From positions 187,860,001 through 187,924,000 of the forward strand of contig NC_091472.1 in NCBI RefSeq assembly GCF_036971445.1: a stretch of DNA of 64,000 bases, written 5' to 3'. Origin of the DNA: Narcine bancroftii. Its lineage: Eukaryota. Positions within the stretch are counted from its first letter, which is position 1. Each line of letters starts with the position of its first letter. Position numbers and translations under genes: made by a program. Below are positions 1,035 through 62,443 of this stretch, piece by piece. The notes under the pieces were generated by a model. The model was not told the DNA's origin. It did not search any database and saw only the letters and a list, made by a program, of their open reading frames with translations.

Positions 1035-4000
1035 CTATTGAAAGAACAAGTAACAAGACAACCAAAAATATCACTGCATTTGATTTGATTAGAAATAACA
1101 TTTCACAAATATGGTACAACACTTTCTGCATCAATGCAGGCAAAATCAGGGATTTATAAATTTGGCAAATCTTGAGTTATTGGCCTGAACCTCTTTCAAC
1201 TCCATGATTGTGCTACTCAAATATGTTCAACTGCTGGGATACCATGTTAAGACTGTCAAGAGTCAAAAAAATAAACTTACTAACTAGTTACGGATCTGTG
1301 ATACAAAATAAACTTTCATAAATCATTATACTGAAGGCTATAATTAATCTTAAAGCCTCAAATGTGAGTTATTCAACACCAATGAAACCAGTTATAATTG
1401 ACATTTTCCATTTAATTGTACCTGCAAAACAACAAGAACATCTAGCTGTTGATTTTTACTGTACATCTCAAAAGCAATTCGAAAAAGTCCCTGAATGCTG
1501 TAAAACCACAGACTGTTCACCATGATCGGCATCTTCAGTCCTTCAAATCGAAATTCTGAAAATAAATATGTACAGAAATCATAATTGAGTTGAAATGGGT
1601 AAAGAAAATAAAAAGTGTAGTTTATTTTATAGTCAACATGTGGATGTTAAGAATTGAAAGATGAGCTGATAGAGCCCATTTCTGTGCTGTACATTTCCAA
1701 TTGAGATTAGAGGCCATGTAATCATTTGGCACATGGAGGTCACTGTGTAAGTGATATTTTGGAGGAGATATAATCATAAATATGAATTATCATTCCACAG
1801 TTTTACATGGTTTTAGGTTCTTTGTGCTTTTAAACAAAGTGCTAATGTATTACCTGAACTAAAATTGAGTTTCGTTGCCAATCCTCTCTTTGCAAATTTT
1901 GCATGAATTCTTGGATGATTTTCAGTGCGAATGCTAGTTTTTGCAATAACATCAGCACCAAGAAAAAGGGGAATCAAATTCTCCTAAAGGTGGGAAAAAA
2001 ATTAAACTTTGAAAGAAATATATTAACAGATATAATGTACATCAACCTTGGTTTTATTTACTTATAAGAAATTAATGTTTCCAAATTGAATTATCTGATA
2101 CTTGAGCACAGTAAATTTGCAGCTTTCAACCAGTCAGTAAAATAGCCTAACTCTAAAATGAGACTTGGAGAGGTAGAATGGACAAATCAGAGGTTAGATC
2201 CCTCTGATTCAAGTCTTTACTAACCAAAATTACACTTGCTGTACTAAATCCAGAGTTCTGTAGGCTTCTAATTAAATTAGCAAATTTGTGAATGACACCG
2301 ATGAATGGGATTGTAGATAGTGAAGGTGGTTGTCAAAGATTGCAGAAGGATCTCTCAGGAAGAGGAATGAATGGCTGTTGAAATTTAATACAAAGAAGTG
2401 CAAGGTGTTACACTTTGGGAGGTCTAACATAAGTAGGACATAAACAGTGAATGTTGAGATCGAAGCATTGAGATTGAGGTTGGTCAAATAGGCCTTCAGT
2501 ACATTAGCCTTCATAAGTCAGAGAACTGAGTACAGAAGTTGGGAATGTAGAAAATCCTTTGCCAGAATCGGTAACCAGAGGGAGGAGAGATTTAATGGGA
2601 ACGATGAGGTAAATTTTGTGTTTTTATAGAGGGTGGTGGATGCATGCAATAGGCTGCCAGAAGAAGTTGATGCAGGTACTTTGGGCAGTGCTAAAGAAAA
2701 AAAAATTGGGCAGATTAGATATGGGTCAAATACGAGCAGAAAGGACGTGGAAAAAATTTGAGCTGAAGAGCTTGTTTCCACGATCTGGCTTTATTAAACA
2801 TCCAAATGAAAGGATTAATCAACCTAATTGAAGTGTGTAATTTAATACAATTATTGAATCATTTTTCATTATCGGGTTGAGACCATCAAACAATGACAGT
2901 CACCAGTAACTTCGAAGAAAACTCCTACAAAAGTATCTCAATCTGCGGGGAGAAATTTTCCCATGTCATTGCCAAGGAATAGGTGGCACAGACTTGCTGT
3001 GGTGTATGACGGGTGATATCAGCAAATCTCGTTAAATAATTCACTCATCCAGTATTGCAGGAAGCTATAAAACCCATTATTTTCAAGCACTGTGTTGACT
3101 TGCCCAGTAAATACCCTAGCCGGACTCTCCGTTCTATGCTCATTGAACTTTCTAATTGAGCAAATTGATCGTCTGTTCGCAGGAGAACCCTTCTCACTCT
3201 TCTTGATACGAGTAAACAAACAAAATTTTACATGTATCAATGCTGTTGAATCAACACATTACAAGTGTTTCAAATTTACAGCACCTGCAAGGAAGAGTCT
3301 TGATTGTTGCCAAATTCAATCCATTGACATAAAATATTAAAAAAACAATTTTACACAGGCCGTTTCGGCCCACGAGCCGGTACAATTTTGAACGGGGGGT
3401 GGGACGGAGCCCGGGGTGGGGGGGGGGGTGGGACGGAGCCCGGGGTGGGACGGAGCCCGGGGTGGGGCGGAGCCCGGGGTGGGGGGGGGGTGGGACGGAG
3501 CCCGGGGTGGGGGGGGGGGGGGGTGGGACGGAGCCCGGGGTGGGGGGGGGGGGGGGTGGGACGGAGCCCGGGGTGGGGGGGGGGGGGGGTGGGACGGAGC
3601 CCGGGGTGGGGTGGGGGGGGGGTGGGACGGAGCCCGGGGTGGGGTGGGGGGGGGGTGGGACGGAGCCCGGGGTGGGGTGGGGGGGGGGTGGGACGGAGCC
3701 CGGGGTGGGGTGGGGGGGGGGTGGGACGGAGCCCGGGGTGGGGTGGGGGGGGGGTGGGACGGAGCCCGGGGTGGGGTGGGGGGGGGGTGGGACGGAGCCC
3801 GGGGTGGGGTGGGGGGGGGGTGGGACGGAGCCCGGGGTGGGGTGGGGGGGGGGTGGGACGGAGCCCGGGGTGGGGTGGGGGGGGGGTGGGACGGAGCCCG
3901 GGGTGGGGTGGGGGGGGGGGTGGGACGGAGCCCGGGGTGGGGTGGGGGGGGGGTGGGACGGAGCCCGGGGTGGGGTGGGGGGGGGTGGGACGGAGCCCGG

Positions 4001-4577
4001 GGTGGGGTGGGGGGGGGGTGGGACGGAGCCCGGGGTGGGGTGGGGGGGGGGTGGGACGGAGCCCGGGGTGGGGTGGGGGGGGGGTGGGACGGAGCCCGGG
4101 GTGGGGTGGGGGGGGGGTGGGACGGAGCCCGGGGTGGGGTGGGACGGAGCCCGGGGTGGGGTGGGGGGGGGGTGGGACGGAGCCCGGGGTGGGGTGGGGG
4201 GGGGTGGGACGGAGCCCTGGGGTGGGACGGAGCCCTGGGGGGGGTGGGAACCGCGGCCCAGTCCCGATCTCTGGCGCTGGCCGCTCCACCAACCGTGGCG
4301 CCCGCAACAACGCCGCTGTGTGAATTCGGGGGGTCAGAGACCGTGATGGACGGCAAGGGCCCCGAGCGAACGAACGTTCTGTAGATTATATTTTAGAGAA
4401 GCTGGGTTGCATTTTAACACCTAATCGGAATGCAGTAATCTTTAGAATACCAACCTCTACCTGAAAATCCTGGCCTAAGGTAAGGGAATTGGACGAACTC
4501 AAGAAGACGAATCGGTATTTCCTGGCGCCCACGCTCCATTCTGGGAAACAGACGGGTAAGCGCTCAACAGAGGCCAT
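159..4577 (-). CDS. Uncharacterised 4-exon gene, 418 aa; exons 4577-4461, 1983-1854, 1555-1422, 1034-159
   Basis: Manual splicing: all three introns are GT-AG with compatible phases (117+130+134+876=1257 nt). Continuous ORF MASVERLPVCFPEW...GQDFQ|ENLIPLFLGADV...NFSSE|FRFEGLK...VVLQ|NLWKARIGD...VLYSSLIYK*. Family not recognised. Confidence 0.82.
1422..1555 (-). CDS. Exon 3 of the uncharacterised gene
   Basis: tttcag acceptor, CAG|gtac donor, open frame FRFEGLKMPIMVNSLWFYSIQGLFRIAFEMYS. Confidence 0.82.
1854..1983 (-). CDS. Exon 2 of the uncharacterised gene
   Basis: ctttag acceptor, CAG|gtaat donor, open frame ENLIPLFLGADVIAKTSIRTENHPRIHAKFAKRGLATKL. Confidence 0.82.
2275..2775 (+). mobile_element. 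Degenerate CR1-like LINE fragment
   Basis: Remnants of CR1 RT C-terminal motifs (SKF.DDT, FN..KCKV.HFG) and a CR1-type 3' region. Confidence 0.55.
3385..4250. repeat. G-rich minisatellite, ~31-bp unit GGGGTGGGACGGAGCCCGGGGTGGGGTGGGGG
   Basis: Directly visible tandem array; explains the low-complexity ORFs at 3337-4384. Confidence 0.95.
4461..4577 (-). CDS. Exon 1 of the uncharacterised gene
   Basis: aacATGG Kozak-like start in the CpG island; CAG|gtagag donor in phase 0, matching exon 2. Confidence 0.72.
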
Positions 4578-4926
4578 GTTCTCATCGACACACCTTCCAG
4601 CCAGAAAAAAACAATCCGCGAGCCTTTCCGCTTCCGTTCAGGAAGATAATCAATCTCCACGACGCCTCTCTCTCTCTCTCTCGTCGTGCTGGTCCCAGCG
4701 TTATCACCAGCGTCTCCCTCAATTTTGGCTGCAGCCGTCGTTTTCCAGGACGTCGGCCCGCATCCTCCTCCAATGAGGCTCGTGCACAGTTGCGGCCGAA
4801 ACTGCAACATGGCTCAGCGGATCACAGCCCGACGGGCCGCTGCAGCGCTCGGGGCCGGGCCGAGGTGCGCGCACTCCGACCTTTGCCCTTTCACCCGCGG
4901 CTGGCTGCGCGCAGCTTCGTGACAAG

Positions 4927-5101
4927 ATGGCCGCGGAGAGGACGGAGCTGGATTTTGGTGACCGAAAATTGTTCGAGGCGTTTGAGGATTCCAACCCTAC
5001 TCATATTCGCTTTCTCCATTTAGAAGACCTGGGTAATATGGAGGACATCAGGAAGAAACTGCAGGAATACGAAGAGAGCGTCGGGTACCTGAAGGCAGAG
5101 A
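4927..5101 (+). CDS. ZCCHC8: ZCCHC8 exon 1
   Basis: MAAERTELDFGD...LKAE(N); ends at U12 donor ATATCCTA (5102). Confidence 0.92.
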
Positions 5102-38825: not shown

Positions 38826-41257
38826 TGTCCAATGTGACTACTTTGCCCTCTTCTGAGGTTATGTTCTCTGCTGATTTTTTTATTTTACTTTTATGAATTT
38901 TCAAACTCAACAATCCATAATGGAAAAAAAAACACTACATTCTCCAATTATATACAAGCTTCACCATCGTCCAATTTTACTCTCCCATCCCCAATCCTTT
39001 TCACTATTAATATATCCAAAGACCAAATTAAATACGCAGTCACCCTAAAGAAAACAAGTCCCTTATTCCTGTAACATTTATCAATATCCCTTCCTGACAA
39101 GTTAGACATATCGGTAAAGGTTCAAAAAGTAAAACAAAACAATTACACCTAAAAAATTCTTACAAAAAAGTAAAAACCCAAAGGAAAAAGATGTAATAGT
39201 AGGATGCGTTGGGACCCCACCACCAGCCATCACTTTTTTGAATTTTTGTATCTCAATCTGATTACGATGGACCCACCCCCAAGGAGGGAGTAGGCAGGAG
39301 CAGACAGCGATGAAGCACAAGGGACTGCACTATATCTTTGCACCTATCTGACCCAGGTACTGTTGCCAAATTTTAAGGAGGTTGTCATATTTCCTCCTTA
39401 GGTTACAGGTAATTTTCTCTGGGGAACACAGCTCTGCATTTCCACATTCCAACACGCAATGCCTAGATGAGAGTCCAATTTCCAGGTATCTGCTATGCAC
39501 TACCTGGCCACCACCAAAGTGATAAACACAAATTGGATTTGAAATTTGGACAGCTTCATCGTAAACCTTGTGTCCATGATCTTTCCCAACAGGAACAACT
39601 CTGGGTCCTGTGAACACTCTTTACCTATGATTTTCTCTAGGACTTAGCCAAGCTCTACCCAAAAGGGCCTCACCTTGGAGCATGACCAGGTTGGGTGCAC
39701 AAAGGTTCCTATCTCTATGTCGCACCTAAAACATTGATCTGAAATTTCTGGCTTAGTCTTGTTCAATTTCTGCAGCGCATAGTACAACTGGTGTAGAAAA
39801 TTATACTGCATCAGCCTGTATTGAGTATTAATAATTGAGGTAATGCTGTCACGACATAGGTCTGACCAGCACCTTTAATCAATCGTTACACCCAAGTCTG
39901 ACTCCCACCATGGGCTAGATTTATGAAGACCCATCTTCAGGCTTTCGGCTTGGAGTAAGAAATACATTGCCTTAATAAACTTTCAACTCCCCTTTCAAAT
40001 CAGTGCCACTGCACACTAGTAGGACTGTAGCTGGACCTAATTTGTCCCATTTTAAAAAAAAACCTTAACTGAAGATAGCAAAAGAATTTCCTCTTTGACA
40101 AATCATATTTATTTTTAAGTTGTTCAAATGACATCATCTGACCCTGCTCATCGCAGTCTTTGATACACCTAATCCCTTTCTGGCACCAGGTGTTCAGGAT
40201 CTTGTTACCTATTGTCCATGGTATTAAGCCATCCTGAGTCAGGGCTGTTTTTGAAGATAACTTCACTTTAAATCCAATGCATTGATTAATCTTGTTCCAT
40301 GCATAAAAAATATGTTTTAATAAGGGAGTGTCTTTGTCCCCAGATAACAATTTAGAGTCCAATTTATAAATAAAGCATTTGCTATCTTCTCACCTATCGT
40401 GTGCAGACCAGTTTGTCCCCAGGGTGGTATATCTCCTCCCTCAAACAGTGAAGTGATATACCTTGACTGTGCTGCCCAATAATTTTTTTTAATTTTTTTT
40501 ATTTTTCACACTATGAACCATACTGACCAAAATACACACAAACATTTCCCTCTTGAATATACACAGTGTCATTTTCTCCCCCTTTCCCCCCTCCCTTCCC
40601 TCCCTCCTTCACCCCCTCCCCACCCACTCAACATTTAACATATATGATACATTAAACAATGTCATCACACAATGAAAATAAACAAGAAATTTGTGTCTTC
40701 TACTTTTATATACTGGGTCAGTTCATTTTGTCTTCTTCTCCTTCTGTCATTTTAGGTGGTGGAGGTCCGTGGTAGGACTTCTCTGTTGTGTTCCATGTAC
40801 AGTTCCCAAATTTGTTCGAATACTGTGATGTTATTTCTTAAATTATATGTTTTTTTTCCCAATGGAATACATTTATTCATTTCTATGTACCATTGCTGTA
40901 TTCTCAGGCTATCTTCTAATTTCCAGGTTGACATAATACATTTTTTTGCTACAGCTAAGGCTATCATAATAAATCTTTTTTGTGCTCCATCCAAATCGAG
41001 TCCAAGTTCTTTACTTCTTATATTACTTAGAAGAAAGATCTCTGGATTTTTTGGTATGTTGCTTTTTGTGATTTTATTTAACATCTGGTTTAGATCTTCC
41101 CAAAACTTTTCCACTTTCTCACATGCCCAAATTGCATGTACTATTGTTCCCGTTTCCTTCTTACAGCGAAAACATCTATCTGATACTGTTGGGTCCCATT
41201 TATTTAACTTTTGGGGCGTGGTGTATATCCTGTGTAACCAATTATATTGTATCATGC

Positions 41258-42031
41258 TGTAATGGAGGATTAAAACCATGTACCCAGATGCTTTTTGCTT
41301 ATGTGGAACTGACGACACTGGGTCCACACGCAGGTCACCTTACTTTCAGAACTAGCAGATGTAATTAAACTCAGCCATGGGGACTTATCTGAAGATACAC
41401 TTTGAAATGGAATTCCACTGTGAGGCCCAGGGAAAGCAGTTGTCAAATGCAACACTCTGAAATTGACGAATTGGTCACAACCTGTCTTGCTCGAGAAGTT
41501 TTAATAAGTCTTTGTATCTACGAGATAAACCAGGAAATTATAACATCCTGGTTCCATAATAATTAATCTTCTAAATTGTAGAATGTAATGTTCAGTTTTG
41601 ATTTTGACTGACAAATATTAGAAGGAGTAGGCGCATGATTAATTGTTTTTGGGGTATATAAGCCTGTGGTCCTGCTGCTGAAGTTTAGACTCTCCGAGGG
41701 GTGGGAACACCCCTTGTCAAGAAGGAAGAACAGCCAGAGTCCGAGCAACGTCCCGGTCGGGGGAGGTGGAGAAGCTGCTACCAGCGCCCTGACAACCTAC
41801 TACAAGTGTGCAGTTGTTGCCTCGCTTCGGCAGTTGGGACCAGTCCAAGCGTTGATAAGTATAGTTGGGAAGGGCTTGCATATTGTAGTGTGAAATCAGC
41901 TTTTGAATTAGTAATAAACATTTGTATAAACTGAACTGCTCTCGGTGTGTGTGTCTATTTTCTTTCGGTAGCTCAAACACTGTGACCAATCTAAAATGAA
42001 CAAAATGAGAGGTATAAGTTTACCCAAGACA
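41258..42031 (+). repeat. ERV 5' LTR (774 bp)
   Basis: TGTAATGG...CCAAGACA; TATATAA 41655-41661; AATAAA 41913-41918. Confidence 0.95.
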
Positions 42032-42033
42032 AT

Positions 42034-42051
42034 TGGCGCTGCGAGCAGGGT
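42034..42051 (+). other. Primer-binding site, tRNA-Ser-like
   Basis: TGGCGCTGCGAGCAGGGT 2 nt after the LTR; near-complementary to vertebrate tRNA-Ser(TGA/CGA) 3' ends as recalled. Confidence 0.8.
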
Positions 42052-42061
42052 TGGTCTCAAG

Positions 42062-43186
42062 ATGTTTCGCCGAAAGAAAGAGGTGAGCCCTGAGCAGTTC
42101 TTGATTCCTGGATGGACTTCCAAAGACGATGGGTTTGGCATGTTGGCCAATACCTTGTCTTTGTTGGGACCACCCATTAGTTGGGATGAGAAGTTAGACT
42201 CATCAAGTGCACCTCTGGGAGAGCGGGTTGCCACTCTCCTTCGAGAAAGTAAATTTCCTGATAAAAAGGGAACGCTGACGAATGGTTTTTGGTTGCTGGC
42301 CACAGCATTACGCCACTCCGTTCAGCGTGAAGCAGAATTAATTCAAAGAGAAGTAGAATCTCAGTGCAAAAGAAAGCAATTAGAGGAGGAGCTAGAAGTC
42401 CTGCGACAATGCTGTTCCATGATGAGCGAGATTGTTCACACCAGTCAGGACAGAGCCAAAGAATGGGAAGATAAGCATGTCCAAATGATTTGCCGTGATA
42501 TTAAACTCCGGCAGCAGCTCTGTGCAGATAAGGAAAGGCATGGAGTAGAACCCGATTCATATCGTATTCATGCCATGATAAGGAATGGTGACGATCCTGA
42601 TGTAATTGAGGATTGGGATGGGAATATCTGGAATGACAATGGTAATAATGCAGATACTCCTCAGCATGTGTCTAACATACTACCCTCTCCATCTGCTGTT
42701 CACGCCCGCCCTATAAGGCAGCAGATTTCCCAAACAGACAGAAGGGAGGATGATGTAAGGGTAGAGATGGAAGGGATAGATACCCCGGTTTCCCATGTGG
42801 ACCCAGGGGAAAATACCCAAACCCCTGCTTATGCTCTATGGCCTACTCCCTCTGTTGGATGGCCTCCACCTCCTCCCCTAGACTGGGTGGAGGACCCTGT
42901 GAGCCAAAGTGGGAACAGGGGTCGGAAGGAGTCAATGATCCGTGATTTCTCTGTAAAAGAGCTGGCTGCCATTGGAGATCGATTTAGGCAAAAAGCAGGG
43001 GAACATCATCCCCAGCTGCTGAGTCCTCCTGGCCCAGCTGTGCTTTCTGCTCCCACTGCTGCTTCTATCGAGCTGGCTTCTCCTGCTCCAGTTACTCATG
43101 ATGAGGTAAAACAATGGGTTAAACAGGCTCTTAAAGATAACAATAGCATGTGGTCCTGGAAGCCCCCAAACCCTTCTGAAGCCTGA
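42062..43186 (+). CDS. gag: ERV Gag (capsid region apparently deleted)
   Basis: First ATG after the PBS (MFRRKKE); coiled-coil N-half, WDGNIW, RDFSVKEL..IGDRFRQKAGE class III gag motif; ends at TGA in frame with pol. Confidence 0.8.
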   Translation: MFRRKKEVSPEQFLIPGWTSKDDGFGMLANTLSLLGPPISWDEKLDSSSAPLGERVATLLRESKFPDKKGTLTNGFWLLATALRHSVQREAELIQREVESQCKRKQLEEELEVLRQCCSMMSEIVHTSQDRAKEWEDKHVQMICRDIKLRQQLCADKERHGVEPDSYRIHAMIRNGDDPDVIEDWDGNIWNDNGNNADTPQHVSNILPSPSAVHARPIRQQISQTDRREDDVRVEMEGIDTPVSHVDPGENTQTPAYALWPTPSVGWPPPPPLDWVEDPVSQSGNRGRKESMIRDFSVKELAAIGDRFRQKAGEHHPQLLSPPGPAVLSAPTAASIELASPAPVTHDEVKQWVKQALKDNNSMWSWKPPNPSEA

Positions 43187-45622
43187 AGGTGTGGGCAGGA
43201 TTCCCGTGTCTACTCCATCGAGACACGGCGCACACACGGGGATCCGCGGCCCTACATACCGTTAACAATCCACTGGGGTGGGGGTAATGATCGCCAATAC
43301 TTGGCTTTGGTCGACACCGGTGCAGAGCACTCGGTGATTCCTGGTAATCCCAACCTCTGGACTGGACCGGCCTTTCGAATAGAGGGGTTGGGAGGAGCGG
43401 TCACCCTGGCAAAGGAAATAAAAGTCTGTGCCATGGTGGGTGATAGCCCTTCCCCTGTCTGGTTACATGCCCTGGTGGCTGCTACTGACGAGTGTATCCT
43501 GGGTATTAATATGTTGGCCGGTATGGCCCTTAATACTAGCCAAGGGGGATTTGAATTTGGAATTCGAACTATTACAAAAAAACTAGTAGTGGGTCAGGTT
43601 AAGTGGGATCCTGTGATGGTGCCAGCCCCCATGAAACCAGTGTGCATTCCACAATATCGTCTCCCTGGGGGGCAGGAAGAGATTACTGCCACCATCGATG
43701 CTCTGCAAGAAGAAGGGGTAGTGAGGCCCGCAACGTCGCCCTTTAATAGCCCTGTTTGGCCGGTCCAGAAGCCGGACGGCTCCTGGAGAATGACAGTTGA
43801 TTATCGTTTTTTGAACAAACATGCCCCACCACTTGCTTCAGCAGTTCCGGACATTGTCACCCTTATTGAAAACATTGCTACTGGGAACTCAGGAACATGG
43901 TATGCTGTCATTGATCTTGCTAACGCCTTCTTCAGTATTCTTATAGCTGAGGACTCACAGGATCAGTTCGCCTTTACCTGGAAGGGGCGCCAGTATACCT
44001 TCACCCACCTTCCAGTATCGCCTTCCCTCTCAATTCACCATTATATTGATGATGTGGCCTCCTGGAGCCTCTGGCAGAAACAAGAGGGTCGCCGAGTCCC
44101 ACTGGGATTCTGGTCACGTACCATGCCTGAGGCTGCCACTCGTTATTCTGCTTTTGAACAACAGTTACTAGCCTGTTACTGGGCCCTGCTAGAGACTGAA
44201 AGAATGACAGGCGATGCAGATGTTCAATTGCGACCTGCACTTCCTATAATGAATTGGGTCCTGGCTAATGATGCTAATCTAAAGATCGGGCGGGCTCAGC
44301 AGTCTTCTATTGTTAAATGGAAGTGGTATATTCAGAGTCGTGCGACCAGAGGGCCTGAAGGGGTGGGCCGCGTACACGAACAGGTGGCTTACCATCCCAG
44401 GTCAGGAACTCACTTATCGGAGGAGGGGGATGGTGGCTCCAGTCAGTATGCTGAGTTGAAGGCAGTCACTTTACCACTAGATCCCCATGATCACCCTCTT
44501 CGCCTGTTTACTGATTCCTGGGCTTTGGCTAATGGACTTGTGGTATGGATGCCTGATTTGCAAAAGAACAACTGGATGATACATGACCGCCCAGTATGGG
44601 GCAAAGAGTTGTGGCAGCTGTTGTGGGATGCTTCCCACCATCGTGAGATAACCGTTTATCACGTTGATGCCCATACCAATATGGCGACTAACATGGCTCA
44701 ACATAATGCAGTAGCAGATCAGCTTGCCACTATCAGCTGTGCTGATACCGTCCCCCTGGCTCGATGGGCACATGAACAGAGTGGTCATTTGGGGGAGAAG
44801 GGATCAGCTATGTGGTCCCGTACACATGCTTTATCCGTCCATCAGGATGATGTCCGCATGGTCGTACGTACATGCCCAGAATGTCAGCTTGTGAAGTTCC
44901 ATACCATTCCACCTGGTCCACATGGCCGAATAAAATGGGGTGCTCACTCAGCTGCGGTCTGGCAAATTGATTACATAGGCCCCATGCTAGACTGTATGGG
45001 TAAATATTATATCCTAGTAATGGTTGACACCTTTTCGGGCCTGGTTTTTACTTTTCCCACCAAGACGGCTGACCAAGCTAGCACTATCCAAGGACTAAAC
45101 CATTTGATTTATCGTTATGATGTTCCAGAGGAGATTCACTCTGATAATGGCTCGCACTTCTCCAGGAAAGCAATCTGTGATTGGGCAAATGACAACGGTA
45201 TTTTATGGATCCACCATATTCCTTATTACCCGCAGGCTGCCGGGTTAGTTGAACAAATGAACGGCTTACTGAAGGAACAAATTCGTTTGGAAACATCACT
45301 GGGGACCCAGAAGGGATGGTGCCATGTGCTGCAGCAGGCAGTCGACAATTTGAATCATCGCCCTTTAAAAGGAGGTACACCTTTCCACCGACTTCTTCAC
45401 GCTTCTGAACTACAGCCTATTCCAGAGGAAAAACAGTCATTGCCCCCCATCCCTGAACTAGAGAATGTTGGACAAAAGGTATGGGTGGCACCACCAGGTA
45501 GTGGCCCTCCTGTAAAAGGGGAAATAGTGACACCTGCCCAGGGTAACACTCGGTGGGTAGCTATTGAGGGACAGGATGATTTAGTCTGTTTAAACACTGA
45601 ATGCTTATGGTATCATGAGTGA
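43187..45622 (+). CDS. pol: ERV Pol: protease - truncated RT - truncated RNase H - integrase
   Basis: Open from the gag stop: DPRPYIPLTIHWG, LVDTGA, DLANAFF, YIDD, AELKA/TDS, HHCC and D-D(35)-E. Confidence 0.93.
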   Translation, partial: RCGQDSRVYSIETRRTHGDPRPYIPLTIHWGGGNDRQYLALVDTGAEHSVIPGNPNLWTGPAFRIEGLGGAVTLAKEIKVCAMVGDSPSPVWLHALVAATDECILGINMLAGMALNTSQGGFEFGIRTITKKLVVGQVKWDPVMVPAPMKPVCIPQYRLPGGQEEITATIDALQEEGVVRPATSPFNSPVWPVQKPDGSWRMTVDYRFLNKHAPPLASAVPDIVTLIENIATGNSGTWYAVIDLANAFFSILIAEDSQDQFAFTWKGRQYTFTHLPVSPSLSIHHYIDDVASWSLWQKQEGRRVPLGFWSRTMPEAATRYSAFEQQLLACYWALLETERMTGDADVQLRPALPIMNWVLANDANLKIGRAQQSSIVKWKWYIQSRATRGPEGVGRVHEQVAYHPRSGTHLSEEGDGGSSQYAELKAVTLPLDPHDHPLRLFTDSWALANGLVVWMPDLQKNNWMIHDRPVWGKELWQLLWDASHHREITVYHVDAHTNMATNMAQHNAVADQLATISCADTVPLARWAHEQSGHLGEKGSAMWSRTHALSVHQDDVRMVVRTCPECQLVKFHTIPPGPHGRIKWGAHSAAVWQIDYIGPMLDCMGKYYILVMVDTFSGLVFTFPTKTADQASTIQGLNHLIYRYDVPEEIHSDNGSHFSRKAICDWANDNGILWIHHIPYYPQAAGLVEQMNGLLKEQIRLETSLGTQKGWCHVLQQAVDNLNHRPLKGGTPFHRLLHASELQPIPEEKQSLPPIPELENVGQKVWVAPPGSGPPVKGEIVTPAQGNTRWVAIEGQDDLVCLNTECLWYHE

Positions 45623-46046
45623 CATGTGTCAGGCTTCTTTGTTCCAGGTTCTCCATTTTACACTCCTGGTGATCTGGCTTAACAGCTGCTTTGATGCCAG
45701 CAATTGGATTTGTAATGTCGAGGACGTTCCAAGGGAGTTACCCGTGGGAAACACGGTCCGATGCATTACACCAAGGAAGTCCTCGGTCACCAGCCTCAAG
45801 TGCAGCTTATATAAATATGTTATTGTTCAGCATGTTTCAAAATCTGTTCGTGAGCTCCAGTACCTGGGTATTGTGGCCAACAAGGATAATTTGAGCCTTG
45901 GTTGGAATCCTTTCTCATGGCTAACTGCTACATTTGGGGGGGTGGGCCACACTATCCTCCGTTGGTTGCTCGCGTCATTGCTTATCTTTGTAATTGTTGT
46001 TTTGATTTCTCTTTTTTCGCTCCCTCTGTACTCAAATACTGGTTAG
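45615..46046 (+). CDS. env: ERV mini-Env (signal-like segment plus C-terminal TM); probably expressed via splice 42082^45648
   Basis: Env position; hydrophobic VLHFTLLVIWL; WNPFSWL followed by TM ILRWLLASLLIFVIVVLISLF. Confidence 0.65.
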   Translation: MSDMCQASLFQVLHFTLLVIWLNSCFDASNWICNVEDVPRELPVGNTVRCITPRKSSVTSLKCSLYKYVIVQHVSKSVRELQYLGIVANKDNLSLGWNPFSWLTATFGGVGHTILRWLLASLLIFVIVVLISLFSLPLYSNTG

Positions 46047-46071
46047 GCCTCGCAAATGACAGATTGTGACC

Positions 46072-46082
46072 AAGGGGTGGGA
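46072..46082 (+). other. Polypurine tract
   Basis: AAGGGGTGGGA abutting the 3' LTR TG. Confidence 0.85.
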
Positions 46083-46856
46083 TGTAATGGAGGATTAAAA
46101 CCATGTACCCAGATGCTTTTTGCTTATGTGGAACTGACGACACTGGGTCCACACGCAGGTCACCTTACTTTCAGAACTAGCAGATGTAATTAAACTCAGC
46201 CATGGGGACTTATCTGAAGATACACTTTGAAATGGAATTCCACTGTGAGGCCCAGGGAAAGCAGTTGTCAAATGCAACACTCTGAAATTGACGAATTGGT
46301 CACAACCTGTCTTGCTCGAGAAGTTTTAATAAGTCTTTGTATCTACGAGATAAACCAGGAAATTATAACATCCTGGTTCCATAATAATTAATCTTCTAAA
46401 TTGTAGAATGTAATGTTCAGTTTTGATTTTGACTGACAAATATTAGAAGGAGTAGGCGCATGATTAATTGTTTTTGGGGTATATAAGCCTGTGGTCCTGC
46501 TGCTGAAGTTTAGACTCTCCGAGGGGTGGGAACACCCCTTGTCAAGAAGGAAGAACAGCCAGAGTCCGAGCAACGTCCCGGTCGGGGGAGGTGGAGAAGC
46601 TGCTACCAGCGCCCTGACAACCTACTACAAGTGTGCAGTTGTTGCCTCGCTTCGGCAGTTGGGACCAGTCCAAGCGTTGATAAGTATAGTTGGGAAGGGC
46701 TTGCATATTGTAGTGTGAAATCAGCTTTTGAATTAGTAATAAACATTTGTATAAACTGAACTGCTCTCGGTGTGTGTGTCTATTTTCTTTCGGTAGCTCA
46801 AACACTGTGACCAATCTAAAATGAACAAAATGAGAGGTATAAGTTTACCCAAGACA
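46083..46856 (+). repeat. ERV 3' LTR (774 bp)
   Basis: Copy of the 5' LTR at constant offset 4825; five ORF-track translations identical. Confidence 0.95.
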
Positions 46857-48307
46857 CATGCGTAACCTCGTGTTTATTGCATCTGCTCAACATTTGGAAG
46901 AAGATTCACATAGAAAGGAATAAAACAAATTAGCAACTACCAAAATTAATATTGACTCAAAATCAACTAATCCCTGTCACAATAGATAACCTTTCATTTA
47001 GAGAATGGGAGAGAAAAGGGATTAAAAGAATAGAAAATTGTTTTTTGGGAAATAAATTATTATTTTTTGAACAAATGAAGGACAAATATGGTATAACTCA
47101 TGGTACAATGTTTGCATACCACCAACTGAAAACCTTCTTGAAGGACAAATTTGGAAGCAGGCTGAGGTTACCAGAAGGAAGCAATTGTGAATATATGATT
47201 ACAGACACAATGATAATTAAAAGATTTATAACAAACATGTACATCAAACTGCAAGAGAAAGAGTATGAGGAAACAAGCTGTAAACCCAAACAAAAATGGG
47301 AACAAGATCTAAACATAAAGAATGAAACATGGGAAAAGCTATGCCCAATAATATTTCTTAAAGTTTGGTGATCTCAGTGCTCGGACTGTAATCCCAGGTT
47401 AATTTTGGCAAGGAAACCATGGTCACTCTCCTATTTCAAATTAACCTACTTACCTGTGAATTAAAATTCTGAAAGAATTTCCAGGGCAACACCATGGGCA
47501 AAGTCTGGAAGAGGTACTGAAGCCTCGGCAACACATTCAACTTGATCAATTGACCCTGCCCATCAACATGATGGGAGGGTCATCCATGTGCTTAGGTCCT
47601 CAAATTTTTTGAGCAAGGGTGTATATATAAATTTTGCAGATTATTGTCCACCCTGACTCCCAGGTACTTAATCCCTTTATGTGGCCATTTCAATTGACTG
47701 CTTTATTTAAATTGACAATAATCCCCTTTTGTAAGTGGCATAACTTCACTCGTGTCCCAATTGATCTTTTACCCAGAGACTTTCCCATAATCCTCCAGAG
47801 TAGAGTGAAGCTTGGCCAGCGAAGTTGCCGGGTCTGTCATCATCAAGAAATAGGTTGACTTTGTGTTCTTCCCAGCCCACTCTGAGCCCCTTGAAGTCTG
47901 GATCCTGTTGTATACCTTCAGTCAATGGTTCTATAGCCAAAATGAATAGAGCTGAAGACAATGGACACCCCTATCTACTAGATCTCAATAGAAGGAAGGC
48001 TGGAGATATTTGCCCATTCATCACAACTTTAGCCTTGGGCATCTTGATCCAATTTATAAAAATTGACCCTCATCCCAATTTCTCCAGTACCTTAAACAGG
48101 AAATTTCATTCTAACCTATCAAACACCTTCTCAGTATCCAGGGCTACAGCGACACTTGGGTCATCCCTTGACTGTGCCAAATGTATGATACTCAGCAATC
48201 TGTTTATATTATCTGCAGCCTGTCCTTTTTTGCAGAAAGCCCGGTTGGTCTACATTAGTTAGCTTTGGCAAATGCTTCACCGATCTACTTGCCAGGGCCT
48301 TCACAAG

Positions 48308-56422: not shown

Positions 56423-56613
56423 NNNNNNNNNNNNNNNNNNNNNNNNNNNNNNNNNNNNNNNNNNNNNNNNNNNNNNNNNNNNNNNNNNNNNNNNNNNNNN
56501 NNNNNNNNNNNNNNNNNNNNNNNNNNNNNNNNNNNNNNNNNNNNNNNNNNNNNNNNNNNNNNNNNNNNNNNNNNNNNNNNNNNNNNNNNNNNNNNNNNNN
56601 NNNNNNNNNNNNN
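56423..56613. other. Assembly gap (191 N) after a C/T-only tract
   Basis: N run. Confidence 1.
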
Positions 56614-57613: not shown

Positions 57614-58259
57614 TCTGGTTTGGGTGCTAATAAGATGAAAATTCTGCATTGGGAAGCATATAGATGATGTGGAAGAAGCTTGAAGGCCAAAAAATGACGT
57701 AAAGGAAAAGAGTACTTAAAATAAATGGATATTCTGTACAGTTGGCCACTGATAAGCAAAGAAAGTTGAAATAAGACTGTGTCACAGTGAATTACCTATC
57801 ATGATAATTGAAGGAGGAGCTCGGAAGGCACTCACATCTTTGTGTGTACCTTTAGAGAATCATTTAGAACAAGAATAAAGATGAAGGATTGTACAGGAAT
57901 TGGCTCCAATCCAAAAAGCTTTTTGGGAATTAGATGAAAGTTCAAGCCAATCATTTTGGCTTAAGTGGAGATTTGTAAAATATGTGACAATTAAATAGTC
58001 ATTAATAAGATAACTATTGTAGATTTATAGATTTCCATTAGGAAGCTTTAGTAGACAACTGAAAGTTCTTGTTTCTGGGCTACATGCAACTGTTCCATAA
58101 CTTAAAAATATGAAGGAGTGGAAGAACCAATATTTTGAACTTCAATTACAATTAAAATGGGCAGTATTGCATCAAGGTGCCTCAAGCAGGCGAATAATGC
58201 TTTTGTTCCCTGGCTATTGTCTGCAATGAATGCTGGCTATGTTTACAAGAGATGCCTCA

Positions 58260-61200
58260 TCCCCCCATTCTCCCCCATCCGCCCATTCTCCCCCATCCGC
58301 CCATTCTCCCCCATCCCCCCATTCTCCCCCATCCCCCCATTCTCCCCCATCCCCCCATTCTCCCCCATCCCCCCATTCTTCCTCACCCCCCCCAGTCTTC
58401 CTCACCCCCCCAGTCTTCCTCACCCCCCAGTCTTCCTCACCCCCCAGTCTTCCTCACCCCCCAGTCTTCCTCACCCCCCAGTCTTCCTCACCCCCCCATT
58501 CTTCCTCACCCCCCCATTCTTCCTCACCCCCCATTCTTCCTCACCCCCCCATTCTTCCTCACCCCCCCATTCTTCCTCACCTCCCCATTCTTCCTCACCC
58601 CCCCATTCTTCCTCACCCCCCCATTCTTCCTCACCCCCATTCTTCCTCACCCCCCCATTCTTCCTCACCCCCCCATTCTTCCTCACCCCCCCATTCTTCC
58701 TCACCCCCCCATTCTTCCTCACCCCCCCATTCTTCCTCACCCCCCCATTCTTCCTCACCCCCCCATTCTTCCTCACCCCCCCATTCTTCCTCACCCCCCC
58801 ATTCTTCCTCACCCCCCCATTCTTCCTCACCCCCCCATTCTTCCTCACCCCCCCATTCTTCCTCACCCCCCATTCTTCCTCACCCCCCCATTCTTCCTCA
58901 CCCCCCCATTCTTCCTCACCCCCCCATTCTTCCTCACCCCCCCATTCTTCCTCACCCACCCCATTCTTCCTCACCCCCCCATTCTTCCTCACCCCCCATT
59001 CTTCCTCACCCCCCATTCTTCCTCACCCCCCATTCTTCCTCACCCCCCATTCTTCCTCACCCCCCATTCTTCCTCACCCCCCATTCTTCCTCACCCCCCG
59101 TTCTTCCTCACCCCCCGTTCTTCCTCACCCCCCGTTCTTCCTCACCCCCCGTTCTTCCTCACCCCCCGTTCTTCCTCACCCCCCGTTCTTCCTCACCCCC
59201 CGTTCTTCCTCACCCCCCGTTCTTCCTCACCCCCCGTTCTTCCTCACCCCCCGTTCTTCCTCACCCCCCGTTCTTCCTCACCCCCCGTTCTTCCTCACCC
59301 CCCGTTCTTCCTCACCCCCCGTTCTTCCTCACCCCCCCAGTCTTCCTCACCCCCCCAGTCTTCCTCACCCCCCCAGTCTTCCTCACCCCCCCAGTCTTCC
59401 TCACCCCCCCAGTCTTCCTCACCCCCCCAGCCTTCCTCACCCCCCCAGCCTTCCTCACCCCCCCAGCCTTCCTCACCCCCCCAGCCTTCCTCACCCCCCC
59501 AGCCTTCCTCACCCCCCCATTCTTCCTCACCCCCCCATTCTTCCTCACCCCCCCATTCTTCCTCACCCCCCCATTCTTCCTCACCCCCCCATTCTTCCTC
59601 ACCCCCCCAGTCTTCCTCACCCCCCCAGTCTTCCTCACCCCCCCAGTCTTCCTCACCCCCCCAGTCTTCCACACCCCCCCAGTCTTCCACACCCCCCCAG
59701 TCTTCCTCACCCCCCAGTCTTCCTCACCCCCCCAGTCTTCCTCACCCCCCCAGTCTTCCTCACCCCCCCAGTCTTCCTCACCCCCCCAGTCTTCCTCACC
59801 CCCCCAGTCTTCCTCACCCCCCCAGTCTTCCTCACCCCCCCAGTCTTCCTCACCCCCCCAGTCTTCCTCACCCCCCCAGTCTTCCTCACCCCCCCAGTCT
59901 TCCTCACCCCCCCAGTCTTCCTCACCCCCCCAGTCTTCCTCACCCCCCCAGTCTTCCTCACCCCCCCAGTCTTCCTCACCCCCCCAGTTTTCCTCACCCC
60001 CCCAGTCTTCCTCACCCTCCCAGTCTTCCTCACCCCCCCAGTCTTCCTCACCCCCCCAGTCTTCCTCACCCCCCCAGTCTTCCTCACCCCCCCAGTCTTC
60101 CTCACCCCCCCAGTCTTCCTCACCCCCCCAGTCTTCCTCACCCCCCCAGTCTTCCTCACCCCCCCAGTCTTCCTCACCCCCCCAGTCTTCCTCACCCCCC
60201 CAGTCTTCCTCACCCCCCCAGTCTTCCTCACCCCCCCAGTCTTCCTCACCCCCCCAGTCTTCCTCACCCCCCCAGTCTTCCTCACCCCCCCAGTCTTCCT
60301 CACCCCCCCAGTCTTCCTCACCCCCCCAGTCTTCCTCACCCCCCCAGTCTTCCTCACCCCCCCAGTCTTCCTCACCCCCCCAGTCTTCCTCACCCCCCCA
60401 GTCTTCCTCACCCCCCCAGTCTTCCTCACCCCCCCAGTCTTCCTCACCCCCCCAGTCTTCCTCACCCCCCCAGTCTTCCTCACCCCCCCAGTCTTCCTCA
60501 CCCCCCCAGTCTTCCTCACCCCCCAGTCTTCCTCACCCCCCAGTCTTCCTCACCCCCCAGTCTTCCTCACCCCCCAGTCTTCCTCACCCCCCCAGTCTTC
60601 CTCACCCCCCCCCCAGTCTTCCTCACCCCCCCAGTCTTCCTCACCCCCCCAGTCTTCCTCACCCCCCCAGTCTTCCTCACCCCCCCAGTCTTCCTCACCC
60701 CCCCAGTCTTCCTCACCCCCCCAGTCTTCCTCACCCCCCCAGTCTTCCTCACCCCCCCAGTCTTCCTCACCCCCCCAGTCTTCCTCACCCCCCCAGTCTT
60801 CCTCACCCCCCCAGTCTTCCTCACCCCCCCAGTCTTCCTCACCCCCCCAGTCTTCCTCACCCCCCCAGTCTTCCTCACCCCCCCAGTCTTCCTCACCCCC
60901 CCAGTCTTCCTCACCCCCCCAGTCTTCCTCACCCCCCCAGTCTTCCTCACCCCCCCAGTCTTCCTCACCCCCCCAGTCTTCCTCACCCCCCCAGTCTTCC
61001 TCACCCCCCCAGTCTTCCTCACCCCCCCAGTCTTCCTCACCCCCCCAGTCTTCCTCACCCCCCCAGTCTTCCTCACCCCCCCAGTCTTCCTCACCCCCCC
61101 AGTCTTCCTCACCCCCCCAGTCTTCCTCACCCCCCCAGTCTTCCTCACCCCCCCAGTCTTCCTCACCCCCCCAGTCTTCCTCCCCCCCCAGTCTTCCTCC

Positions 61201-61425
61201 CCCCCCAGTCTTCCTCCCCCCCCCCAGTCTTCCTCCCCCCCCCAGTCTTCCTCCCCCCCCAGTCTTCCTCCCCCCCCAGTCTTCCTCCCCCCCCCAGTCT
61301 TCCTCCCCCCCCCAGTCTTCCTCCCCCCCCAGTCTTCCTCCCCCCCCAGTCTTCCTCCCCCCCCCCAGTCTTCCCCCCCCCCCAGTCTTCCTCCCCCCCC
61401 CCCAGTCTTCCTCCCCATTCTTCCC
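58260..61425. repeat. C-rich minisatellite, 18-20-bp unit (CCCCCCCAGTCTTCCTCA and variants), ~3.15 kb
   Basis: Directly visible; explains the ~1000-aa low-complexity ORFs. Confidence 0.97.
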
Positions 61426-62443
61426 TTTGAGAATTTTTCAACAAAATGACATAAGGGCTGTGGAATTAAGGGATTATAGCTGCATGAAAACTGAATTGGC
61501 AAGAACTATGGATATGAGTGGATTGCTTTTTAGTTGAAAGATGCAATATATTAGTTGTTCCCCCAGGGGTCGAATTAGCAACTACTAATATTTTTAGATT
61601 TTTCCGAATGACCTAAATTCGTGTTTAGGGGATGATAGTGAAATGAATGGGCAATGCACTTTAGAGAGATTTAATGTCAAAAGAAACTATTCTGGCACAA
61701 TTTGAAAATTATGAGCGTAGATTTCAGTTCTCATTTATACAAATCCTTAAAAGGTTGCAGGAAAGTTGATTTTTAAAAAAAAAGCATTCGAGCTACTTGT
61801 GTTTATAAATAGAAGTGAAAGCGATCATGTTTAACATTGTAAGTCTCTGACTTCATATGAATTATTTTTCTGATTACCACATCAGACAAGATGCAAAAAA
61901 CATCAGAAAAAGAACAGAATCTAGAGTTCATTGCATTTTTGTAATTTTATGTTATGAGGGAAGTTGGGAAATTTCTTCTTGAAGCTTGGAGATTCAACTT
62001 CTTGTGCAGTGCACAAAAATGCTGGAGAAACTCAGCAGGTCCTGCAGCATCCATGGAAAGTAAAAGACATTTGAAATTTCAAGCCTGACTCCTTCTTCAG
62101 GTGTGCCAAAAATCAGACAGTCCCCTGAATTTAAAAAGGTATGGCCAAGGGGAAGAAAGAGGAAAAGTCGTTTTCATGATGTAGATTTTAAAAGGACGTC
62201 GGTCTGGTGAGGGGTTGATGAAAAATCTATTGGGAAAGAAGAGAAATTCAGGGGCTTTTGAATCTAAAAGATGTACCTGAAAAGTGTCATTTTCTTTTGC
62301 ACCAGGATTATTGTGAATATTTATATCTATCTTGCATATTTATTTTCTTCTTAATTCAATTAGTTTACTATTATAGTTTTTCCCTTTTAGTAGAACCTGT
62401 TCAGCTTCAGCAATAAGAATTTTAGTGCAAAATTATCATCATG

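Follow-up and report, generated by a model that had tools for sequence, protein, structure and literature searches.

Avian sarcoma-leukosis viruses (ASLV) are already known to start Env with a piece of Gag: the env splice donor lies within gag and, in the accessible part of the source, the first six residues of Env are those of Gag (PMC8220723). The closest described system by overall layout is XtERV-S, an endogenous retrovirus (ERV) for which the available part of the report lists a tRNA-Ser primer-binding site (PBS), gag and pol in a single frame separated by TGA, a YIDD motif and a length of ~8 kb, a basic, non-myristoylated Gag N-terminus with PSAP and without a zinc knuckle, and a gamma-type transmembrane subunit (TM) with immunosuppressive domain (ISD) and CX6CC (PMC8278194). 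All of these traits recur in the parent of the element described here, a 5.6-kb provirus (positions 41258-46856) in a 64,000-nucleotide stretch (the window) of the genome of the electric ray Narcine bancroftii, a cartilaginous fish (GCF_036971445.1, contig NC_091472.1, 187,860,001 to 187,924,000, forward strand). In its family the env mRNA is spliced from just behind the seventh gag codon, an arrangement inherited from a parent with an intact Env, and the short Env that results is most likely a remnant without a selected function. In the literature searched, which left out most subscription papers, we came across neither an account of this family nor a class III ERV that splices a Gag leader onto env.

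The sequence-only reading of this locus had predicted that seven Gag codons complete the signal peptide of a spliced mini-Env, and the two splice sites it relied on are indeed seen in phase 0 on the plus strand, where all stranded features of the provirus also lie. The donor, GAG/GTGAG with the intron starting at 42083, directly follows the basic leader exon common to gag and env (42062-42082, codons 1-7, MFRRKKE), and the acceptor (45635-45647, ttctttgttccag/G) opens the env exon at 45648 in the env frame. When the GT and AG sites of the whole element were ranked with a crude weight matrix, the donor came first of 332 and the acceptor seventh of 358. The env exon (45648-46046) has 132 codons up to its stop, without a single Met and with Cys at residues 14, 22, 39 and 52; its start is hydrophobic and a TM peak in the hydropathy profile lies near residues 105-125. 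The predicted product measures 139 aa from the gag start, and two ATGs of U5 in the gag frame (41996 and 42005) could lengthen it to 161 aa. Both were present in 21 of 30 sister copies (nine unmatched), the sample, used throughout, being the first 30 in genome order of 475 copies that bear the env deletion junction described below; 22 of 25 matches of the long terminal repeat (LTR) in long relatives have ACG/GTG at these positions.

Usage of the junction 42082^45648 was followed in four sequencing runs (X1-X4) that belong to one study and were represented by contigs only, their status as RNA, on record for none of them, being guessed. A 3,565-nt skip occurred in all four. X1-X3 have the GT..AG joint itself (depth 239, 73 and 13), and a variant of it displaced by one base is present in X3 and X4 (depth 45 and 63). 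Sequencing depth rises at the acceptor, the env exon reaching 31, 11, 4.8 and 9.2 times the intron mean in the four runs; unlike this step, the genomic junction copies of env and of the reverse transcriptase (RT) are about equal in number (475 vs 428). The depth of the joint stays far under that of the env exon and other donors may, therefore, also feed it. No listed contig covers both the splice joint and the env deletion junction. The runs hold almost none of the letters that are private to the window copy (45010, 45602); the expression seen is that of the family and not demonstrably that of the window copy. A genomic source of the joint reads was considered and dropped, since a genome pattern search (purines directly before the env start) returned no joined copies of the window type and two diverged ones. 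In these two (L127 and L128), LTR, PBS and seven gag codons are directly followed by env, and by their sequence they look like reverse-transcribed spliced RNA. A further joint, from 42271 to 45843 with 15 letters between, appeared in three runs and is probably another gag-to-env deletion variant. Two RefSeq gag-pol models (P0126, P0129) splice the integrase (window ~45375) to the acceptor at 45648 in another frame, with a 10-residue tail.

In a homologous protein (P0135), the part that matches the window env is preceded by a furin site and CX6CC. A genome search with this preceding part listed at least 150 matches, and 30 of these long loci were looked at. Both env breakpoints were mappable in 26 loci, all of which have the same acceptor and 1,041-1,097 additional nt at window positions 45818-45825. 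Read from the acceptor onward, eight long loci encode 491-502 aa that include the furin site and CX6CC. Their Env has CWVC at residue 144, RHRR/RHKR at ~317, LQNR, and CX6CC at ~402; it matches TLV_coat (E 8e-15) and Syncytin-2 (E 3e-16) and is 40% identical to a stingray Env across 96% of its length. Furin site, ISD, CX6CC, CXXC in the surface subunit (SU) and TM, as expected of a gamma-type Env, are all found in the long relatives, and furin site, fusion peptide, ISD and CX6CC are all missing from the window protein. GAG/GTGAG follows gag codon 7 in 12 of 16 stretches from long relatives, the other four being without a gag start. No in-frame ATG precedes the acceptor in nine of 12 long loci, and 10 of 12 have their first Met only at 147-162; env thus mostly lacks a start of its own, so that the Gag start is needed. 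Judged from these relatives, the Gag-env splice is inherited from the long parent gene, with the basic patch of Gag probably doubling as n-region of the signal peptide. The Gag N-terminus of XtERV-S is likewise basic, of a kind that the accessible part of its description says binds membranes in other retroviruses (PMC8278194). The annotated records P0135 and P0137 start at internal methionines, and automatic annotation hence overlooks an Env start supplied by Gag.

The long relatives fall into more than one subfamily. One subfamily (L084, L091, L092, L128) has a different U3 and a different PBS, which presumably fits another Ser tRNA. The U3 of the window copy matches one long subfamily only. 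The env junction was considered as a recombination point between two long subfamilies, an explanation that was dropped because the segment behind the junction is 84-90% identical to all of them and only U3 is subfamily-specific.

Alignment to a full-length relative reduces the window env to a ~500-aa gamma-type Env minus one 364-codon block; by this comparison it is the long env gene without an in-frame block of ~1,092 nt and with a one-base shift in the tail. Residues 1-58 (45648-45821) comprise the h- and c-regions of the signal peptide and an SU stub of ~40 residues. At the junction (45818-45825) ~1,089-1,092 nt are gone at a 5-nt microhomology, and what follows (45822-46046, residues ~422-487 of the long form) holds the C-terminal heptad end, the membrane-proximal stretch WNPFSWL and the TM helix, an extra base near 46011 having shifted and shortened the frame of the tail. 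Only residues 1-~60 and 422-487 of the long Env find a counterpart; the greater part of SU, with its CXXC, has been lost, and so have furin site, fusion peptide, first heptad, ISD and CX6CC. The absence of furin site and CX6CC, already remarked upon from the letters alone, is explained by the position of both in the deleted block, and what had been taken for a single ectodomain of ~80 aa is an SU stub fused to the TM end. A non-fusogenic, membrane-anchored protein, as had been proposed, agrees with the loss of the fusion machinery and the retention of the TM anchor; a dedicated mini-Env kept for a function is not supported, as this is a deletion derivative whose splice belongs to the long parent gene and whose variation fits neutrality, in-frame deletions also occur in gag and pol, and an env deletion that is out of frame has spread as well.

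Receptor interference in the manner of Refrex-1 or suppressyn, which had been suggested as such a function, is extremely improbable. Signal peptide and the extreme N-terminus of SU with three Cys are kept, but SU residues ~59-316, including CXXC at 144, are lost. The truncated Envs that the available part of the source describes as active measure 230-439 aa and retain the receptor-binding domain, in contrast to the ~40 SU residues left here, and this comparison makes interference unlikely (PMC9245640). Refrex-1-type Envs are also ERV-derived and shortened; according to the same partial source, they are secreted proteins without TM in which the receptor-binding domain is retained, so that the short Env represents the opposite cut, and membership of a class with an intact receptor-binding domain and 230 or more aa is ruled out (PMC9245640). 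An accessory protein like gp55 from Friend SFFV (spleen focus-forming virus), one that would act on a host membrane protein via its TM helix, is also very unlikely, even though the layouts match: as far as the accessible part of the gp55 literature describes it, both come from a defective virus with deletions in all genes, and in both a deletion fused SU to TM with loss of the cleavage site and a one-base insertion truncated the tail (PMC3185572). However, in that account gp55 has a proven function and still carries an N-terminal SU domain, as opposed to ~40 SU residues and no sign of a function here (PMC3185572), and there is neither a sequence relation nor a signal of selection. The tail frameshift is fixed in most copies, and an older copy that has the env deletion and lacks the tail shift fits a stepwise decay equally well.

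The provirus lies within a minus-strand LINE fragment between two copies of a 5-bp target-site duplication, CATGC (41253-41257 and 46857-46861, without assigned strand). Its 5' LTR (41258-42031, 774 nt), with a TATA-like element at 41655 and AATAAA near 41913, does not differ from the 3' LTR (46083-46856), and this identity over 774 nt indicates a very young insertion. The PBS (42034-42052) fits tRNA-Ser(UGA). In a sister copy (L131:1460-1520) it runs on into the 3' half of this tRNA, anticodon loop (TGA) included, which looks like reverse transcription past the usual primer stop; relaxed ARAGORN calls the stretch tRNA-Ser with a misplaced anticodon, and default ARAGORN found no tRNA at PBS-like matches. 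A purine-rich tract (46070-46082) precedes the 3' LTR and is, by its position, probably the polypurine tract (PPT). The 374-aa gag frame (42062-43186), which ends with TGA in frame with pol, lacks 226 codons (deletion near 42991) beginning at a motif resembling the major homology region (MHR). Pro-pol (43187-45622) is open over 811 aa. Three deletions, all in frame, have cost it 66, 450 and 177 nt, near 44009, 44053 and 44389, respectively; with them went LPQG, the part of RT that follows YIDD and the first of the RNase H motifs, whereas the protease and integrase motifs are kept. Since capsid, RT and RNase H motifs are damaged, the element needs a helper. One recombinant locus (L096) is 99% like the window copy up to ~44390-44400 and then continues with long-type integrase and env, which points to recombination with long copies. 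No Pfam match was obtained for gag or env of the window copy. Elsewhere in the window, GC-rich stretches at 3001-5000 (skew +0.5) and 58001-62000 (skew -0.8) are probably simple or tandem repeats, and a run of N occupies 56423-56613.

In comparison with long relatives, the window copy thus lacks 678, 66, 450, 177 and ~1,092 nt, each divisible by three and with microhomologies of 0-6 nt at the ends. Spliced-out introns are ruled out as their origin because the deletion ends are not GT..AG. Of the other deletions seen in relatives, 6 of 14 keep the frame, against five of five here (Fisher one-sided p 0.04), and with this background the five are mildly unusual at most. Selection at the RNA level for an open gag-pol only, through avoidance of nonsense-mediated decay or through translation in cis, with env being in frame by a one-in-three chance, is a tentative explanation which we consider possible although we would not favor it. 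All four gag and pol deletions are in frame, and the env frame, downstream of the gag-pol stop, would leave the genomic RNA unaffected; such selection would also be compatible with, and additive to, a passenger role of env. However, a stop near the end of integrase (45431) is common to 19 of 30 sampled copies (the window copy is without it), and the in-frame share of the control deletions is already 6 of 14.

The exact env deletion junction occurs in at least 475 genomic copies. Env changes among the sampled copies (59 nonsynonymous (N), 32 synonymous (S), 3 stops) do not depart from the neutral synonymous share of 0.30 (p 0.43), nor do those of a 3' pol control (269/116/18, p 0.91). This variation fits neutrality. 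When two long envs were compared, the N:S ratio was ~1:1 beyond residue 58, indicating purifying selection, and 23:9 in residues 1-58. A second, independent env deletion, which is out of frame, gave 35 pattern matches and is carried by 11 of 12 examined; ten of these stop within 41 aa, and the deletion is present in three runs. A third, in-frame, was found at one locus. The middle of env has been lost repeatedly in this family, whether the frame was kept or not.

The short Env might instead be a natural membrane-anchored C-peptide or dominant-negative subunit that, with its heptad end, membrane-proximal stretch and TM helix, jams the cognate long Env in fusion or trimer assembly, protecting cells from reinfection by the enveloped parent and so favoring intracellular copying. 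The kept TM part begins just past CX6CC and spans the heptad end matched to Syncytin and GP2 ectodomain structures, the env exon is well represented in the runs, and an engineered membrane-anchored C46 (maC46) blocks HIV fusion, as stated in the accessible part of that work (PMC2925957). Nevertheless, this proposal seems unlikely to us, because only ~15-20 heptad residues are left, one of the three deletions spread although out of frame, and no synonymous excess is seen (window-side changes relative to an older copy are 6 N : 2 S).

We consider it, therefore, much more plausible (roughly 75%) that the short Env is a passenger, the remains of an env gene in a family whose env is degraded and which depends on a helper; its protein is most likely a by-product with no selected function. 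Several observations weigh against this. In all three independent env deletions, the sequence starts again just past CX6CC, within ~30 nt and thus at nearly one place, as the C-peptide proposal would have it. Disruption of the frame in most sister copies, which the sequence-only reading had named as grounds for its own refutation, is not observed: 26 of 30 sampled copies have an open env, and all 30 an intact acceptor. The neutrality test is weak, since young copies acquire most of their changes after insertion, and with 31:18 the TM part of the short family shows no significant difference from the purifying pattern seen in the long env (p 0.23). An allele at 45740 typical of the short family (21 of 25 matched short copies vs 1 of 24 matched long loci) makes up 54-95% of the depth in the runs. 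Finally, with five of five large deletions in frame, some selection for open frames is plausible.

Under the passenger explanation, the parent would have been an ERV-S/XtERV-S-like class III retrovirus carrying a gamma-type Env, whose env mRNA was spliced from just past gag codon 7, so that the Gag start codon and basic N-terminus served as start and presumably as n-region of the Env signal peptide. In one lineage five internal blocks would then have dropped out at short microhomologies, with template jumps during reverse transcription as the probable cause; this lineage would have turned helper-dependent and have reached at least ~475 copies. The splice sites and the two ends of env would have persisted because, as cis features close to the acceptor and the PPT/LTR, they were inherited. 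Spliced RNA is apparently still made and could encode a non-fusogenic membrane protein of 139-161 aa, consisting of signal, SU stub and TM end. High copy number in an env-degraded ERV family is a known pattern, according to the part of the source at hand (PMC10536682).

The spliced exon may have consequences for the host as well. The RefSeq models of two host genes, HSPB1-associated protein 1 isoform X4 (P0134) and NKAIN3-like isoform X2 (P0139), enter the env exon at the same acceptor, in frame, and end with the whole 132-aa exon. The family may, on these gene models, trap host transcripts and add a membrane anchor to their products, and hundreds of copies of a working acceptor seem to do so. 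A search of proteins clustered at 50% with the env exon found three proteins only, all from Narcine bancroftii, and annotated proteins of this species are 97-98% identical to Pol and to the env exon.

Membership of the ERV-S/XtERV-S group is indicated by the Ser PBS, gag-TGA-pol in one frame, YIDD and the order RT-tether-RNase H-integrase, and also by Gag, which has a basic N-terminus, PSAP and MHR and neither zinc knuckle nor myristoylation (in the one long Gag scanned, MHR-like motif at 307, PSAP at 551, no CCHC). Based on this layout and these motifs, and not on an RT tree, the parent resembles class III ERV-S/XtERV-S. The best Pol matches come from ERV proteins of amphibians, fish and birds, many of which have a dUTPase after integrase; in a search of the PDB, scores for RT of murine leukemia virus and foamy virus were nearly tied and integrase was nearest to that of prototype foamy virus. 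ERV-L proper, with dUTPase after integrase and without env, is ruled out, as an env is present and the dUTPase Pfam domain was not found in the one long Pol searched. The Env of lokiretroviruses is related to fusion proteins of Mononegavirales, and this group is ruled out by the TLV_coat/Syncytin-like Env. Snakehead retrovirus splices a leader that is independent of Gag.

XtERV-S, in the accessible part of its description, has a dUTPase-like segment, its Env has a 19-aa signal peptide of its own, and the donor is placed upstream of the PBS, whereas here the donor is inside gag, no dUTPase match was obtained and the window copy is multiply deleted; ERV-S, according to the same paper, lacks a dUTPase (PMC8278194). 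The gag primer printed for XtERV-S reads MFCWLKNK followed by GTTAG, donor-like and one codon later, although the paper puts the donor elsewhere (PMC8278194). Like IAP, recKoRV and HML2-MER11A, for which the available part of the source links env degradation to high copy number, the family combines both; unlike IAP-type ERVs, it has lost capsid, RT and RNase H motifs, needs a helper and splices an open env remnant (PMC10536682). Long and deleted forms coexist in this genome, so that the shift from an enveloped virus to a helper-dependent genomic parasite is traceable. If the remnant did block fusion by the parent Env, this would be an ERV-derived restriction route unlike receptor interference, with engineered maC46 as its man-made counterpart and a Gag-leader splice as its means of delivery, in a family of hundreds of copies. 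The parallel with ASLV drawn from the sequence alone is upheld: in both, the donor lies in gag and Env begins with Gag residues, six there and seven here, yet in the ASLV description, as far as accessible, 56 env-coded residues follow inside the signal peptide, while here the h-region begins at the acceptor, so that both the start and all of the basic n-region come from Gag (PMC8220723). A class III-like ERV lineage in a cartilaginous fish thus takes its Env start, and probably its signal n-region, from the basic N-terminus of Gag and, as ASLV belongs to a different ERV class, this arrangement is probably convergent with that of the alpharetroviruses.

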